The notes: generated from the sequence alone by a model not told the origin. Positions 38,177 through 52,097 are shown, numbered from the stretch's first letter. The stretch: 64,000 nucleotides of DNA from an uncultured Clostridium sp. (GCA_946409935.1 CAMJYG010000001.1:5660-69659); one strand, 5' to 3'. Numbers and translations are program-made.

Positions 38177-38231
38177 ATAGAAAAAACAAATTAAAAGAAA
38201 AAAACTAAAACAAAATTAAAAATCAAATTAC

Positions 38232-38388
38232 CAATGCTGATTCTTTTATTAGTTATTAGCAATTAGAAACGAGTATTACAAGGCAAACGAATGAAAAAAG
38301 CGGAAGCGTACTTGTGTACGTTGAGCATTCTTGAATGAAGTTTAACGCAGTAAGACGAAGTTTATAATTGGTAAGGATCAGCCAATAG
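38232..38388 (-). repeat. Family C hairpin element (reverse orientation) in the rpsJ-rplC spacer
   Basis: Loop GGAAGC GTACTTGTGTAC GTTGAG (38308-38319 core). Its reverse complement carries CTGCGTTAAAC and TCGTTTGCCTTG arm motifs. The outer stem is GCTGATTC/GGATCAGC. Confidence 0.75.
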
Positions 38389-38403
38389 GAAGGAGAAAAA
38401 ACA

Positions 38404-39039
38404 ATGAAAAAAGGAATTATCGGAAGAAAAATCGGTATGACACAAATCTTTGATGAGAAAGGAAACGTTATCCCAGTAACTGTTATTGAAGCTGGACCAT
38501 GTGTTGTAGCACAAGTAAAAACAGTAGAAACAGATGGATATAACGCTGTTCAATTAGGATTTGGAGAAATAAAAGATAAACATATTAATAAACCAGAAGC
38601 AGGACATTTTGCAAAAGCAAAACTTGCAAACAAAAAACATTTAAGAGAATTTAAATTAGAAAACATTGAAAACTACAAAGTTGGAGATGAAGTAAAAGCT
38701 GATGTATTTGAAGTTGGAGAAAAAATAGATGTTCAAGGTACATCAAAAGGAAAAGGATTCCAAGGTGTTATTAAAAGACATGGACAACACAGAGGACCAA
38801 TGGGACATGGGTCTATGTATCACAGAAGACCAGGTTCAATGGGACCAACATCAACACCAGGTAGAGTATTTAAAGGTAAAAAATTACCAGGACAAATGGG
38901 AAAAGCAACAATTACAATACAAAACCTAGATGTTGTTAGAGTAGATATGGATAAAAATGTATTATTAGTAAAAGGAAGCGTTCCTGGATCAAAAGGAGCT
39001 ATTCTAAAAGTAAAATCAGCTGTAAAGGCTAGCAAATAG
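38404..39039 (+). CDS. rplC: 50S ribosomal protein L3
   Basis: [20 protein letters not shown]. Confidence 0.95.
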
Positions 39040-39059
39040 AAGGAAGGAGGAAATACAAA

Positions 39060-39683
39060 ATGCCAAAAATAGATGTTTATGATATAAAAGGTAAAAAAGT
39101 TAGTGATTTAGAATTAGCAGATAGTGTATTTGGTATAGAACCAAATGAAAATATTGTTCATGCAGTACTTGTAAATTATCTAGCTAATCAAAGACAAGGT
39201 ACACAAAGTACTAAAACAAGAGCAGAAGTTTCTGGTGGTGGTAAAAAACCTTGGAGACAAAAAGGAACAGGTAGAGCTAGACAAGGAAGTATCAGAGCTC
39301 CACAATGGATTAAAGGTGGTATAGCTTTAGGTCCAAAACCTCGTTCATATAAATACACAGTTAACAAAAAAGAAAGAAGATTGGCAATTAGATCAATTTT
39401 AAGTTCTAAAGTATTAGAAAAAGAATTAACAGTTGTTGATAAATTAGAATTAACAGAAATAAAGACAAAAACAATGGTAAAAGCTTTAGCAGATTTAAAA
39501 GTTGAAGGAAAAACATTAATAATAGTTCCTGAAAGCAATAAAAATGTTTTAATGTCATCAAGAAATATTGAAGGAGTTAAAACAATTACTGCAAACAATA
39601 TCAATGTATTTGATTTATTAAAATATACAAATCTAATTTTACCAGTAGATACTGTTAAAAAATTAGAGGAGGTGTACGCATAA
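39060..39683 (+). CDS. rplD: 50S ribosomal protein L4
   Basis: ..RQGTQSTKTRAEVSGGGKKPWRQKGTGRARQGS... Confidence 0.95.
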   Translation: MPKIDVYDIKGKKVSDLELADSVFGIEPNENIVHAVLVNYLANQRQGTQSTKTRAEVSGGGKKPWRQKGTGRARQGSIRAPQWIKGGIALGPKPRSYKYTVNKKERRLAIRSILSSKVLEKELTVVDKLELTEIKTKTMVKALADLKVEGKTLIIVPESNKNVLMSSRNIEGVKTITANNINVFDLLKYTNLILPVDTVKKLEEVYA

Positions 39684-40030
39684 TGTTACCAGAAGAAATA
39701 ATTATAGCACCTGTTGTTACAGAAAAAAGTAACAACGAATTACAAGAAGGAAAATACACTTTCAAGGTAAATAAAAAAGCAACAAAAATTGAAATAGCAA
39801 AAGCTGTTGAAAAACTTTTTGAAGTAAAAGTATTAAAAGTAAATACAATGACAGTAAGAGGAAAAAGTAAAAGAGTAGGATACCACACAGGAAAAACTTC
39901 AGATTGGAAAAAAGCTATTGTTACAATAGATACAAATCCAGGAGAAGCTACATATTTAGCAAAAGGTGGTAAAACTACAAAGATTTCTAAGAAATATAAG
40001 GATTCTATTGAAGAATTCATGGGCGCTTAG
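39683..40030 (+). CDS. rplW: 50S ribosomal protein L23 (with about 15-20 aa C-terminal extension)
   Basis: ..IIAPVVTEKS..YTFKVNKKATKIEIAKAVEKLF.V.V..VNT. Confidence 0.9.
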   Translation: MLPEEIIIAPVVTEKSNNELQEGKYTFKVNKKATKIEIAKAVEKLFEVKVLKVNTMTVRGKSKRVGYHTGKTSDWKKAIVTIDTNPGEATYLAKGGKTTKISKKYKDSIEEFMGA

Positions 40031-40158
40031 TTAAAACAAATGAAAATCGGCATCTTGCTTCGTTAAACTTCAATTTTAATTTAATCAACGTACAACAGTA
40101 CGTCTCATAAATTAAAATTTCGTTTGCCTTGCAATATACCAATTTTGCTTTGTTTTAA
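40031..40158 (+). repeat. Family C hairpin element (128 bp), starts at the first nt after the rplW stop
   Basis: Inverted-repeat ends TTAAAACAAA/TTTGTTTTAA, loop CAAC GTACAACAGTAC GTCTC (40090-40101 core), arm motifs CTTCGTTAAAC / TCGTTTGCCTTG, and inner perfect pair AATTTTAATTTA/TAAATTAAAATT. Confidence 0.85.
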
Positions 40159-40266
40159 AATATAGAGAGAAGAACATAAAGAATAATTATCGGGAAAGAA
40201 CCCGGAAAATAAAAAATATCTGTTATGCGGAGCAGGAAAAATATCCGTAAATATAATATTTGATTA

Positions 40267-49936: not shown

Positions 49937-50617
49937 ATGGTAATTATAATGTTAGGAGCGCCTGGTACAGGAAAAGGAACAGTTGCAAGTATTTTAGAAG
50001 AAAGATTAAATGCTCCACAAGTATCAACAGGTGATATTTTTAGAAAAAATATTTCAGAAGGTACAGAATTAGGAAAATTAGCTGAAAGTTATATTTCAAA
50101 AGGAAATTTGGTTCCAGATGATGTTACAATCGGATTAATTAAAGATAGATTACAACAGGAGGATGTAAAAGAAAACATTATATTAGACGGTTTTCCAAGA
50201 ACAGTTGTACAAGCTGAAGAATTAAATAAACTTCTTGAAGAGCAAGGAAGAAAAGTAGACATGGTTATTAATTTAACTACTCCTAAAGAAGAAATTATAG
50301 AGAGAATAGTAAATAGAAGAGTTTGTTCAAATCAAAATTGTAAAACAGTATTTAATCTAGTTTTAAATCCTCCTAAAAAAGAAGGAATATGTGATAAATG
50401 TGGACATGAACTTGTTCAAAGAAAAGATGATAATGTTGAAACAGTTGAAGCAAGAATAGAAAATTATTTAAAAAATACAAATGCATTAGTAGAATATTAT
50501 GAGAAAATGGGAGTTTTGCATACTGAAGTAGTAAGTAAAAGTATAAATAGAATGGGTGCAGATGTTGCAAATGATATTGCAGAATATTTATTAAAGGAGA
50601 CGAAATTAAATTGGTAA
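49937..50617 (+). CDS. adk: adenylate kinase (zinc-lid type)
   Basis: P-loop GAPGTGKGT and lid CSNQNC..CDKCG. Confidence 0.95.
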   Translation: MVIIMLGAPGTGKGTVASILEERLNAPQVSTGDIFRKNISEGTELGKLAESYISKGNLVPDDVTIGLIKDRLQQEDVKENIILDGFPRTVVQAEELNKLLEEQGRKVDMVINLTTPKEEIIERIVNRRVCSNQNCKTVFNLVLNPPKKEGICDKCGHELVQRKDDNVETVEARIENYLKNTNALVEYYEKMGVLHTEVVSKSINRMGADVANDIAEYLLKETKLNW

Positions 50618-51381
50618 CAATTAAATCAAAAAGTGAAATTGAGTTAATGAGAGAAGCTTGTAAAGTTGTTGCTCTAACATATAAAGAATTAGAAGAAAAA
50701 ATAAAACCGGGAATGTCAACATGGGAATTAGATCAAATAGCAGAAAAAAAGATGAGAAGTTTAGGGGCGATTCCTGCAGAAAAGGGGTATGATATAGGTA
50801 TAAAAGGAGTACCACCTTTTCCTGCATCTATATGTGTATCAATAAATGATGAAGTTATTCATGGAATTCCATCAAAAAAAAGAATAATAAAAGATGGAGA
50901 TATTGTTAGTATAGATACAGTTGCTTTAAAAAAAGGATTTAATGGAGATGCTGCAAGAACATTCATTGTAGGAAAAACATCTAAAGAGGCCGAAAGATTA
51001 GTAAATGTTACAAAACAAGCTTTTTTTGAAGGAATAAAATATGCAAAAGCTGGAAATAGACTAGGAGATATCTGTCATGCAATAGGAGAATATGTTCATT
51101 CAAATGGTTATAGTGTTGTTAAAGAATTTCAAGGACATGGTATTGGAAGAGAAATGCATGAAGATCCGGGAATTCCAAACTATGGTAAAGCAGGTAGAGG
51201 AATTAGATTAGAACCAGGTATGACACTTGCAATAGAACCAATGGTTATAGAAGGAAAACCTAATATTCTTGAATTAGATGATGGTTGGACAATTATAACA
51301 GAAGATGGAAGTATGGCAGCTCATTATGAAAATACAATTTTAATTACAGAAAAAGAGCCAGAAATATTGACAATGCTTTAA
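50611..51381 (+). CDS. map: type I methionine aminopeptidase (TTG start)
   Basis: ..DGDIVSID.. and HGIGREMHEDP. Confidence 0.95.
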   Translation: MVTIKSKSEIELMREACKVVALTYKELEEKIKPGMSTWELDQIAEKKMRSLGAIPAEKGYDIGIKGVPPFPASICVSINDEVIHGIPSKKRIIKDGDIVSIDTVALKKGFNGDAARTFIVGKTSKEAERLVNVTKQAFFEGIKYAKAGNRLGDICHAIGEYVHSNGYSVVKEFQGHGIGREMHEDPGIPNYGKAGRGIRLEPGMTLAIEPMVIEGKPNILELDDGWTIITEDGSMAAHYENTILITEKEPEILTML

Positions 51382-51468
51382 TAATGATGTATAATACAAT
51401 AGTTATTATACACAATGGAATTATTTTGCAAGAAAAAATGTAAATGCTCTTTAAGGAGGTAGAAAAAA

Positions 51469-51687
51469 TTGTCAAAAGAGGATGTTATTGAAATAGAAGG
51501 TACAGTAGTAGAAGCTTTACCAAATACCAATTTTAAAGTGGAATTAGAAAATGGACATCAAATCTTAGCACATATTTCAGGAAAATTGAGAATGAATTAC
51601 ATTAAAATTTTACCTGGAGATAAAGTTAAGGTAGAACTTTCACCTTATGATTTAACAAGAGGTAGAATAACTTGGAGAGCAAAATAA
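51469..51687 (+). CDS. infA: translation initiation factor IF-1 (TTG start)
   Basis: [52 protein letters not shown]. Confidence 0.95.
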
Positions 51688-51802
51688 AACAAATTTAAAT
51701 TATTAATATAATTTGAATCTGCTTAGAAAATAACAGTTTTCAATATAATAAGTATAAAAAAATTAACCCAAATATATAACATAAAATAGAGAGGTGAAAA
51801 AA

Positions 51803-51916
51803 ATGAAAGTAAGACCATCAGTAAAAAAAATATGTGACAAATGTAAAGTTATAAAAAGAAAAGGAAAGATTAGAGTTATTTGCGAAAACCCTAAACATAA
51901 ACAAAGACAAGGATAG
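51803..51916 (+). CDS. rpmJ: 50S ribosomal protein L36 (37 aa; below the ORF-track size cut-off)
   Basis: My own translation is [37 protein letters not shown]. An RBS GAGAGGTG lies upstream. Confidence 0.95.
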
Positions 51917-51932
51917 TCTAAAAAAGCTTACA

Positions 51933-51988
51933 ACACAAATTTAGATAGCGGCTGTGAAATCTAAAAGATTTCTTATCAAATTTGTGTT
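51933..51988. repeat. Hairpin in the rpmJ-rpsM spacer
   Basis: ACACAAATTT..GAAATC TAAAA GATTTC..AAATTTGTGT. Confidence 0.5.
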
Positions 51989-52097
51989 TATATACATGTC
52001 TAAAAATAAAAAAAGACTAGCAGTAAACGGCTAGTGCATTTCACTTTTTTTAAATAAGACAAAAATAAAACAATTAATTTTGGAGGTGCAAAAAAAT

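Follow-up and report, generated by a model that had tools for sequence, protein, structure and literature searches.

The S10-spc-alpha ribosomal-protein operon of an uncultured Clostridium sp. (GCA_946409935.1) extends from rpsJ (37853) to rplQ (55379) within a 64,000-nt stretch of DNA (CAMJYG010000001.1:5660-69659), which we refer to as the window and from whose first letter all positions are counted. Several junctions between the genes of this operon hold copies of a long hairpin repeat, here termed family C, whose structure, placement and likely nature are considered below. The window is about 27% GC, and its plus strand, which has a strong purine skew, carries nearly all of the genes in the open reading frame (ORF) map. 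A sequence-only reading of this DNA had proposed that a normally compact operon is interrupted by mobile hairpin elements, and had listed nine long spacers in support. The ORF map reproduces all nine lengths: rpsJ-rplC 227, rplW-rplB 371, rplN-rplX 256, rpsN-rpsH 258, rpsH-rplF 162, rplF-rplR 185, rplR-rpsE 123, secY-adk 236 and, taking the ATG of MARIAGV at 52098 as the rpsM start, rpmJ-rpsM 181 nt. At least one long hairpin is predicted by folding in each long spacer.

Whether such lengths are out of the ordinary depends on the junction. Eighty loci spanning the same operon in relatives were retrieved with the rplE protein, and 29 junctions were tabulated across 81 loci (loci are numbered with the prefix L). 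The closest relatives are uncultured, low-GC gut metagenome-assembled genomes (MAGs) labeled 'Clostridium/Clostridia', at 80-98% identity. In distant Clostridia, median spacers are 24 nt for rplN-rplX, 28 for rpsN-rpsH, 24 for rpsH-rplF, 18 for rplF-rplR, 30 for rplR-rpsE and 22 for secY-adk, and for these six junctions the spacing in the window is indeed unusual. By contrast, rpsJ-rplC (median about 90 nt) and rpmJ-rpsM (median 91-188 nt) are long in most Clostridia. In total, the spacers of the main ribosomal-protein operon amount to about 2.9 kb here, versus about 1.35 kb in more distant relatives, a figure that still counts two extra small genes. Hairpin elements, of family C and of other families, make up much of the 2.9 kb. 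A repeat does not occupy every long spacer, as had been supposed: five of the nine hold family C sequence or that of its C2 subfamily, and several hold conserved leaders or other elements.

A covariance model, R1, was built on an alignment of 36 diverse copies and run over the whole window with no filters; its E-values are rough. The model recovers exactly the six family C copies picked out by the sequence-only reading, with E-values of 1e-5 to 1e-27, and the next best match, at 12.5 bits (E 0.4), is noise. These copies are listed in Table 1 with the other elements of the window.

Table 1. Family C copies, related hairpins and conserved leader segments in the window.
Feature	Position	Strand	Observations
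Divergent family C/C2 copy upstream of ileS	6958..7068	-	R1 partial match 6981-7042, 25.7 bits, E 3e-5
Family C copy outside the operon	12682..12817	-	R1 89.2 bits
Family C copy, stable strand in mRNA	38253..38379	+	R1 75.4 bits, E 1e-20
Family C (C1) copy	40029..40158	-	R1 96.4 bits, E 3e-27
Single-copy segment between the two rplW-rplB hairpins (ATCGGGAAAGAACCCGG...GCGGAGCAGGAAAAATATCCGTAAATA)	40183..40260	+	17 relatives, same junction, 78-96% identity
Family C copy	40265..40392	+	R1 57.5 bits, E 4e-15
Hairpin element outside family C, rplN-rplX spacer	44023..44144	+	Sole match in L012, same junction, 81% over 123 nt
C2 hairpin with degenerate tip	45383..45500	-	Directly after rpsN stop (TAG, then AATTTTAATGAAAATCAGTAATCTGCACATTTTC...)
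Decayed family C/C2 remnant, rpsH-rplF spacer	46095..46170		Half of tip kept (AAAAAGTACGCCC)
Family C copy	46733..46869	-	R1 76.6 bits; directly after rplF stop (TAA, then TTTGAAAAA)
Two near-perfect hairpins, secY-adk spacer	49769..49896	+	No copies elsewhere among the DNA compared
rpmJ-rpsM spacer, alpha-operon leader rather than insertion	51917..52097	+	Alignable at same position in 17 relatives

The rplW-rplB spacer holds two copies in opposite orientations. The first (40029-40158) lies directly 3' of the rplW stop (TAG, then TTAAAAC; offset -2); its minus strand, which is antisense to the operon, folds at -46.1 kcal/mol and its mRNA strand at -32.5. The second (40265-40392) has its stable strand in the mRNA (-33.4 on the plus versus -28.4 kcal/mol on the minus strand); at its 3' end it borders directly on the Shine-Dalgarno (SD) sequence of rplB (...GTTTTGAGAG followed by GAGAAAAGTATG), 9 nt from the rplB start. 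The copy at 38253-38379 folds at -27.0 (plus) versus -17.0 kcal/mol (minus); it lies within a conserved stem (GCTGA...TCAGCCAATAG) just 5' of the rplC SD, 24 nt from the rplC start, and relatives that are free of the element retain TCAGCCAATAG. For the copy after rplF the values are -42.3 (minus) versus -27.2 kcal/mol (plus). Outside the operon, the copy at 12682-12817 overlaps the last 16 nt or so of rsmE (ORF 11920-12699, an RsmE-type RNA methyltransferase), whose TGA stop (12697-12699) falls inside the left arm. The divergent copy at 6958-7068, absent from the R1 seed alignment, has the tip GATGTAC-N5-GTACACCTT with C2-like arms and folds at -42.6 (minus) versus -19.1 kcal/mol (plus).

The C2 subfamily has arms of the form ...AATCTGCACATTTTC.../...AAAAATGCACATCTTACT and the same kind of tip as C1. 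The C2 hairpin after rpsN, which folds at -34.9 (minus) versus -22.1 kcal/mol (plus), matches C2 copies in L013 (two), L007 (two), L008 and L003 by blastn, most of which are also R1 matches. The remnant in the rpsH-rplF spacer is 74% identical over 77 nt to positions 7010-7085 of the window (blastn, E 1e-5). A small ORF of 34-37 aa runs through some copies, for example at 46751-46864; it was rejected as coding because the alternation of 4- and 5-nt loops shifts the frame, and because the stems covary by nucleotide rather than by codon.

The copies share one design. Read from the outside on the better-folding strand, an outer stem is followed by a tandem G.A/A.G pair inside CAGAUG/CAGAUG, by an internal loop GAGGC/AACGAA, and by a stem of about 9-10 bp whose sequence is free; beyond it lie GAGG/UUGA (two G.U and a G.A), a CGUAC stem and a loop of 4-5 nt. 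On the gene-sense strand the same design reads ...GAAAAAGG-CCCATCTGC-TTCGTT-(stem)-TCAA-CGTAC-N5- on the 5' side and -GTACG-CCTC-(stem')-GCCTCG-CATCTGG-CCTTTTT... on the 3' side. The hairpin is about 125 nt long, and its length keeps within 122-131 nt over all GC contents at which it occurs. The center is most conserved and the ends least, the ends differing between subfamilies. Of the motifs proposed earlier, the tip CAACGTAC-N4-5-GTACGCCTC and the loop motifs CGT(C/T)GTT and GCCT(A/T)G are real, but the 'AAA' and 'TTT' assigned to them belong to the covarying stem, where AAAC/GTTT, AAAT/ATTT, AAGC/GCTT and GGAC/GTCC are all found. The claim that the stems covary is upheld. In the 36 diverse copies 92.7% of cells are paired, versus 66% after shuffling and 31-43% after sliding partners; double-sided changes number 239 observed against 74 expected, none of 500 shuffles attains the observed score, and the inner stem alone has 10-22 compensated changes per pair. 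By-eye comparison of the loop motifs with K-turns and loop E gave no assignment, and an attC reading of the loops was set aside since the attC boxes are absent.

The two strands of the element are far from equivalent. With 'top' denoting the coding strand of the ORF that leads into the element from upstream, isolated stem mismatches on this gene-sense strand are A.C or C.A in 106 cases and G.T or T.G in 6, counts that come partly from conserved positions and so are not independent. On the complementary strand the A.C and C.A mismatches become G.U wobbles, a conserved TC/TC becomes the tandem G.A/A.G, and the loops read GAGGC/AACGAA and GAGG/UUGA. The energy difference is by nature a per-copy result: in 63 of 63 copies the complementary strand is the more stable, by a mean of 14.8 kcal/mol and in every GC class, and the window copies, C2 included, share the pattern. 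This difference points to a fold under selection on the strand antisense to the upstream gene. Among operon loci, the stable strand is antisense to the operon in 25 copies and sense in 6. Occurrence in both orientations had been taken as evidence of DNA-level spread, but orientation is far from random and is tied to position. Since the selected fold is antisense in most operon copies, the mRNA there carries the weaker complement; as had been anticipated, a hairpin is nevertheless predicted in the mRNA in either orientation, at -27 to -39 kcal/mol. Local GC skew in metagenome loci, which bears on replication versus transcription as the cause of orientation, gave few informative cases.

Placement against translation signals is strict. 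All 24 mapped antisense operon copies start at, or a few nucleotides inside, the stop codon of the upstream gene, at nine junctions (after rpsN, rpoA, rplW, secY, rplE, rplN, rplF, rpsS and rpsM), with 13-243 nt remaining before the next gene; a 25th, in L008, lies just upstream of the map gene, its own upstream neighbor, presumably adk, being unmapped. Conversely, all six sense copies end at the SD of the downstream gene (rplB three times, rplC, rplN and rpsH), 73-410 nt from the gene upstream. The same physical end of the element thus always abuts a translation signal, and the two arrangements are mirror images of one another. Nor is this confined to the operon. Of 43 copies in low- and mid-GC contigs, which have few spurious ORFs, 24-28 lie after an ORF's stop codon or include it, whereas a convergent ORF at the other foot of the element accompanies about 4 of 49. 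One mid-GC family has 8 of 8 ORF-adjacent copies ending at the first TGA of the element and none at the next, out-of-frame stop. High-GC contigs have the same stop-codon peak, confounded there by long spurious ORFs. Flanking stop motifs number 27 TAA, 37 TAG and 28 TGA, the other placement being at an SD sequence.

Overlap with the 3' end of khpA, which encodes a KH-domain protein, was seen in two different mid-GC genomes (L141, 1425-1555; L158, 675-804), the last codons of khpA forming part of the outer stem in both. This position may be conserved over a long evolutionary distance.

Comparison of close genomes bears on how the element is gained and lost. R1 finds 25 further copies among the operon relatives, all within the close clade (L002-L029), and no copy in 47 more distant Clostridia (L034-L080). 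Junctions of the close clade are expanded, different ones in different genomes, and those of distant Clostridia are compact, with medians of 18-30 nt. The proposal of gain and loss at the DNA level holds up, with presence/absence differences both between the window and L001 and between L007 and L008, and with them the insertion polymorphism between close genomes used to recognize MITEs (miniature inverted-repeat transposable elements). The coding sequences of L007 and L008 are nearly identical; at rplE-rpsN, however, a full copy in the former faces a left-arm remnant of about 30 nt in the latter, and a C2 copy at rpsM-rpsK in L007 has no counterpart in L008. 'Empty' sites in L001, L002 and L003 carry left-arm remnants of about 15 nt after stop codons. 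At rplF-rplR the closest relative, L001, is without the element, and the empty sites of L001, L002, L004 and L005 could be aligned.

Kinship among the copies frequently crosses junctions. In many cases the copy most similar to a given one comes from a different genome and a different junction: the window copy after rplW pairs with that after rpsN in L011 (82%), and the copy before rplN in L018 with that before rplB in L007 (84%). Copies after rpsN and after rpsM within L007 itself are 86% identical. Within the clade, identity is mostly 70-86%, except for same-junction copies in sister genomes. Taken together, cross-junction kinship and this level of identity suggest that family C is mobile but old. 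The same stop codon can also be occupied by different subfamilies: after rplW, C1 is found in the window, L023 and L012 and C2 in L013 and L004, and after the rplF stop, C1 is found in the window and C2 in L003.

The same hairpin extends well beyond this clade. A scan of metagenome contigs for an 18-base tip pattern returned at least 120 loci, and among the matches listed about eight were low-GC gut contigs and most were either soil contigs of 65-74% GC or contigs of 38-52% GC. Because the scan demanded the tip, tip conservation is partly built in, but conservation of the arm motifs and of length is not. Applied to 100 of the tip loci (L085-L184), R1 gave 100 matches with E<=1e-3 and a local GC of 0.25-0.78, the majority of which span the full element and score 60-117 bits, and copies without the exact tip pattern were picked up as well. 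Overall, carriers range from 27 to 78% GC and come from gut, soil and sediment, and the loci found by their tip alone carry the same overall design as the window copies. Judged by GC content and habitat, carriers appear to come from several phyla. Copies in relatives and in metagenome contigs mean that the motifs are not peculiar to the window, as the sequence-only reading had held; at the same time, one design in gut, soil and sediment contigs of very different GC does not fit a local MITE.

Database and literature searches gave no earlier account of the family. No family in Rfam 15 covered the window copies, whether at the gathering threshold or, in a search of the operon, at E<=5, and none was hit in ten further loci with copies, drawn from the high-, mid- and low-GC classes; over the window as a whole, the gathering threshold yielded two tRNAs only. 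Blastn of high- and mid-GC copies against plasmid records, and of a copy of about 50% GC against 5,426 Escherichia coli genomes, gave no match. Literature searches by sequence string and by keyword turned up no description of family C. Four tip-pattern matches in viral contigs fall in sequence of 50-62% GC without a hairpin and are due to chance. A separate AT-rich hairpin of about 160 nt, in human-gut contigs of 55-62% GC (L100, about 3720-3880), shares only the tip (TCAACGTAC-N5-GTACGCCTC) with family C and has different arms. It is identical in L091, L097, L105, L132, L162, L170, L176, L186, L194 and L197, lies in L100 just upstream of what its translation suggests is a DAHP synthase gene, and had no R1 match at E<=1e-3 in the ten loci searched (within L091-L176; L186, L194 and L197 were not among them).

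What might move such an element was sought among its neighbors. Low-GC copies usually bear TA...TA (TTAA) at their ends, and high-GC copies CTAG...CTAG. The mobilizer suggested earlier, an IS200/IS605-type TnpA or a RAYT (REP-associated tyrosine transposase), was seen neither in the window nor among the 162 of 342 neighbor ORFs scanned; specifically, no RAYT (Y1 HUH) was found in the scanned window ORFs or the 150 nearest neighbor ORFs, with the host genome covered for 64 kb only. These 150 nearest neighbors of metagenome copies fall into 218 Pfam families, none with more than three members and no integrase among the top families, and all-against-all blastp of the 342 neighbor ORFs gave no shared family of interest. 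The genes beside copies represent all functional classes, and a noisy regular-expression scan for arm motifs found no left arm separated from its right arm by a gene. Lack of a linked gene fits dispersal acting in trans. The only transposases among the neighbor ORFs scanned were two of IS630 type, in two different complete IS630-family insertion sequences of high-GC soil contigs (L133, 537-1679; L192, 937-2077), both inserted into CTAG at the stop-codon-side, flush end of a family C hairpin. These insertions show that the element ends offer CTAG targets, not what moves family C.

Several long spacers are explained by sequence other than family C. The rpmJ-rpsM spacer, the middle of rplW-rplB (about 40183-40260) and the rpsD-rpoA junction are each conserved at the same position across relatives, which marks them as leaders rather than repeats. 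Rfam matches to Alpha_RBS upstream of rpsM (52035-52130; 22 bits against a gathering score of 38) and to the S10-Clostridia leader upstream of rpsJ (37594-37687; 23.7 bits against 35.1) are below threshold, and both fall at the expected places. The segment at 40183-40260 (ATCGGGAAAGAACCCGG...TATCTGTTATGCGGAGCAGGAAAAATATCCGTAAATA) includes a small GGG...CCC hairpin, has no Rfam family match and has no copies at other places; from its conservation at one junction, it is probably an rplB (L2) leader, apparently one that has not been described. In the rplN-rplX spacer, sequence related to the element at 44023-44144 is present at the same junction in L005. The secY-adk junction is long throughout the close clade (median 191 nt). 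Its two hairpins in the window fold at -25.6 and -19.8 kcal/mol on the plus strand versus -10.9 and -7.0 on the minus strand, a preference for the mRNA strand that is opposite in polarity to that of family C and suggests true RNA structure. The rplR-rpsE spacer has no repeat match, and only about 30 nt by the rpsE ribosome-binding site align with relatives. At rpsE-rplO (47893-47933), 41 nt are found here versus about 212 nt, with room for rpmD, in more distant Clostridia; judging from this spacing, the L30 gene seems to be missing from the operon in the clade.

Other repeats accompany family C in these genomes. Four more junctions differ between L007 and L008 by a separate hairpin family unrelated to family C: this second element (...CACCTATTCA.G.GGGGAGGGGACATTCCTTAA.C.AAGTGGA...GTGTCCCCTGTC) is at rpsH-rplF, infA-rpmJ and rpsK-rpsD in L007 and at rplR-rpsE in L008, and its variation between two nearly identical genomes indicates recent mobility. 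Within the window, a repeat family that is 85-95% identical and present in both orientations (22396-22601, 25547-25684, 26518-26725, 55522-55609, 61975-62173 and 63308-63395) includes a perfect small hairpin (TACAATAGGAAAG...CTTTCCTATTGTA) followed by GAGCTTCGCTCTATGCGTTGCACAG. There is also a pair of 159-nt inverted repeats, 92% complementary and 29 kb apart (7122-7280/36708-36866), of which one copy sits directly beside the family C copy at 6958-7068 and the other just upstream of the S10 operon, and a separate pair of 91-nt direct repeats at 640-730 and 18476-18566 (96% identical). Firmicutes ileS genes usually have a T-box leader; Rfam detected none upstream of ileS (7356-10505), which is preceded here by about 400 nt (6958-7355) that include the family C copy and part of the 159-nt repeat.

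We favor, with a probability of roughly 0.55, the interpretation that family C is an old, non-autonomous, strand-specific foldback mobile element of REPIN or MITE-like kind, yet a family of its own that is present in many bacterial lineages. The idea of a mobile repeat put forward in the sequence-only reading therefore survives in its essentials, a real covarying repeat family that is gained and lost, but needs revising as regards orientation, a local MITE and a repeat in every long spacer, and its RAYT partner was not seen among the ORFs scanned. Such an element would spread via a single-stranded intermediate, of DNA or possibly RNA, with one strand folded, and its conserved loops would be recognized by an enzyme acting in trans and encoded elsewhere in the genome, whether HUH/RAYT-like or otherwise structure-specific. 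Operon copies might then survive mainly where the weaker complement enters the mRNA and the strong strand is kept off the lagging-strand template, so that the orientation bias could stem from selection against a strong hairpin, whether this acts on the mRNA, the lagging-strand template or both; an orientation dependence of palindrome deletion was reportedly described by Trinh and Sinden in 1991. Flush mirror placement would come from a process at the DNA level rather than from an RNA function, with insertion at the TA of TAA, TAG, CTAG or TTAA, or deletion of the DNA on one flank as far as the first essential base, as candidates. In the mRNA the elements would be passengers, hairpins of 120-140 nt between cistrons, with any effects on stability or processing being secondary. 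An effect of stop-flush copies on the upstream cistron is nonetheless plausible by analogy, as Liang, Rudd and Deutscher are said to have found in 2015 that E. coli REP sequences within about 15 nt of a stop codon stall terminating ribosomes.

A number of observations weigh against this interpretation. Flush placement of 24 in 24 copies within TA-rich spacers of 40-60 nt is hard to obtain from a TA target alone. A conserved center with variable ends is the reverse of what a DDE-type, transposase-bound MITE displays, and tandem G.U and G.A pairs with GAGG-bearing loops are typical of functional RNA. There has been no recent burst of copies, so that long-term retention by selection is possible. 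Relatives offer no clean filled/empty pair with flanks alignable on both sides, and since TA, TTAA and CTAG are all palindromes, what looks like a target duplication might equally be extra base pairs of the stem. Finally, there is no transposase among the ORFs of the 64-kb window, and the IS630 transposases beside metagenome copies were rejected as mobilizers, as their inverted repeats are unrelated to the hairpin arms.

Could family C instead be a structured, cis-acting RNA module that works with translation at cistron boundaries? Sense copies before an SD would then offer their two GAGG motifs as standby or decoy ribosome-binding sites, or the hairpin as a 5' stabilizer, and antisense copies would begin their weaker hairpin at the stop codon, display CCUC, be partly opened by the terminating ribosome, and so could shield the 3' end of the upstream cistron or modulate coupling to the next. 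Conservation across phyla would reflect a universal partner: the anti-SD of 16S rRNA, a conserved RNA-binding protein or an RNase. The flush fit of both orientations (24/24 and 6/6) speaks for such a module, as do stop adjacency in unrelated low- and mid-GC contigs (24-28/43, against about 4/49 convergent at the other foot), the 8/8 copies at the first TGA, the length held at 122-131 nt over the GC range, the conserved G.U and G.A pairs and GAGG/CCUC loops, and persistence at 70-86% identity. In 25 of 31 operon copies, however, the mRNA does not contain the strand with the selected fold, and mirror placement, natural for DNA with its lack of polarity, is awkward for RNA; close relatives manage without the element at the same junctions, no Rfam family matches, and flanking genes of every functional class would have to be served. 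On balance we find an RNA module doubtful, if still the strongest competitor. A bolder hybrid, which we hold to be unlikely, sees a cross-phylum structured nucleic-acid module recognized by a universal partner and placed by a mechanism coupled to translation boundaries. Its core would be the GUAC-stem tip together with two purine-rich loops that bear GAGG and are separated by about two helical turns, its partner the ribosome and its anti-SD or a widespread structure-specific enzyme, and its candidate mechanism insertion into a single-stranded, ribosome-free gap of a transcribed operon.

Conventional transposition by a DDE transposase, as a MITE of Tc1/IS630 type (duplicating TA) or IS5 type (targeting YTAR), would make the outer arms terminal inverted repeats, and would ascribe stop targeting to a TA preference combined with selection against intragenic insertion. 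By eye, a TA-(element)-TA reading suits about 9 of 12 low-GC copies, and C-TA-(element)-TA-G suits many of the high-GC ones; in high-GC genomes CTAG and TAG hardly occur outside stop codons, which would explain adjacency there, and IS630-family elements in the same genomes use the same CTAG sites. Yet it is the ends that differ between subfamilies and the center that is conserved, the two IS630-like elements found have unrelated inverted repeats, and five of six SD-side copies have no TA target on the flush side. AT-rich spacers contain many other TA sites, yet 24/24 copies are at the stop codon, and a DDE enzyme, acting on double-stranded DNA, leaves the strong one-strand fold unexplained; we consider this route improbable. 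Least credible of all, to the point that we would be surprised to see it borne out, is an attC-like structure-specific site, folded on one strand for a tyrosine recombinase and marking the 3' ends of gene units. The resemblance is real in that both are imperfect palindromes (about 60-140 nt) with a free central stem and conserved unpaired bases, one strand of which folds better, and which are positioned right after or overlapping the stop of a co-oriented ORF. But the arrangement that attC requires of its core boxes, RYYYAAC...GTTRRRY, is not found, GTT being on the 5' arm of the gene-sense strand with GCCTC as its partner; the tip, variable in attC, is the most conserved part of family C; and its neighbors are core ribosomal-protein genes in conserved order rather than cassettes, with no integrase seen among them.

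It is common to regard small hairpin repeats as genomic clutter peculiar to one lineage, whereas the core of family C, about 40 nt, and its fixed length span 30-78% GC. Family C deserves a covariance model of its own, since annotation of thousands of MAGs is otherwise liable to mistake it for spacer, small ORFs or terminators. Because one strand folds far better than the other, sequence by itself is enough to tell which strand matters. The placement rule, in turn, bears either on how mobile elements target gene boundaries or on how hairpins at those boundaries affect polycistronic expression; if placement were indeed coupled to translation boundaries, family C would represent a mobile element that 'reads' gene ends.

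REP sequences, which RAYT transposases mobilize (Bertels & Rainey; Di Nocera et al. 2013), provide the closest precedent. They are imperfect palindromes of 20-40 nt with an unpaired GTAG or CGTC tag at one end, two of which in inverted arrangement constitute a REPIN (PMC3733652). The RAYT gene lies in the same genome, in most cases with repeats on its flanks. Like the REP/REPIN-RAYT system, family C is extragenic and multicopy and mostly lies downstream of co-oriented ORFs; like it, too, family C forms hairpins of about 100 nt or more, persists for long periods by vertical inheritance with occasional spread, and likely depends on a single-stranded fold. The differences are in construction and carriers. 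Family C has neither tag, its unpaired motifs being GAGGC/AACGAA and GAGG/UUGA; it is built as a single long hairpin, conserved at the tip and in two internal loops; and it is found, with no RAYT seen, in low-GC Clostridia and in uncultured high-GC lineages. We know of no REPINs described as sitting flush with stop codons and SD sites.

Correia elements of Neisseria, ERIC/IRU of enterobacteria and RUP of pneumococcus are likewise imperfect palindromes, of 100-150 nt, found in both orientations in transcription units; they have TA-type ends, and their hairpins in mRNA can affect processing and stability. Each of these families is specific to a genus or family, with conservation running over the full length or located at the ends. 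Family C, unlike them, keeps its core from 30 to 78% GC as stems and ends change, and has a strand asymmetry of about 15 kcal/mol and a strict rule of flush placement. With the attC sites of integrons it shares structure over sequence, a free central stem, one active strand and a location at the ORF 3' end, but it lacks the attC core boxes and has a conserved tip, and neither integrase nor cassettes were seen. PATEs derived from IS200/IS605 are similarly strand-specific and hairpin-dependent, and insertion by a short motif without obvious duplication would fit. PATEs, however, have two subterminal hairpins, left and right, on one strand and insert 3' of a single fixed tetra- or pentanucleotide, where family C has a single hairpin flanked by TAA, TAG, TGA or an SD, and no TnpA or TnpB was seen in the window or the neighbor ORFs scanned. 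To our knowledge, ordinary small mobile repeats do not sit flush at stop codons or ribosome-binding sites. Set beside these systems, the combination in family C of a core conserved across very different genomes, a strong fold on one strand and flush placement at translation signals is unusual for hairpin repeats.

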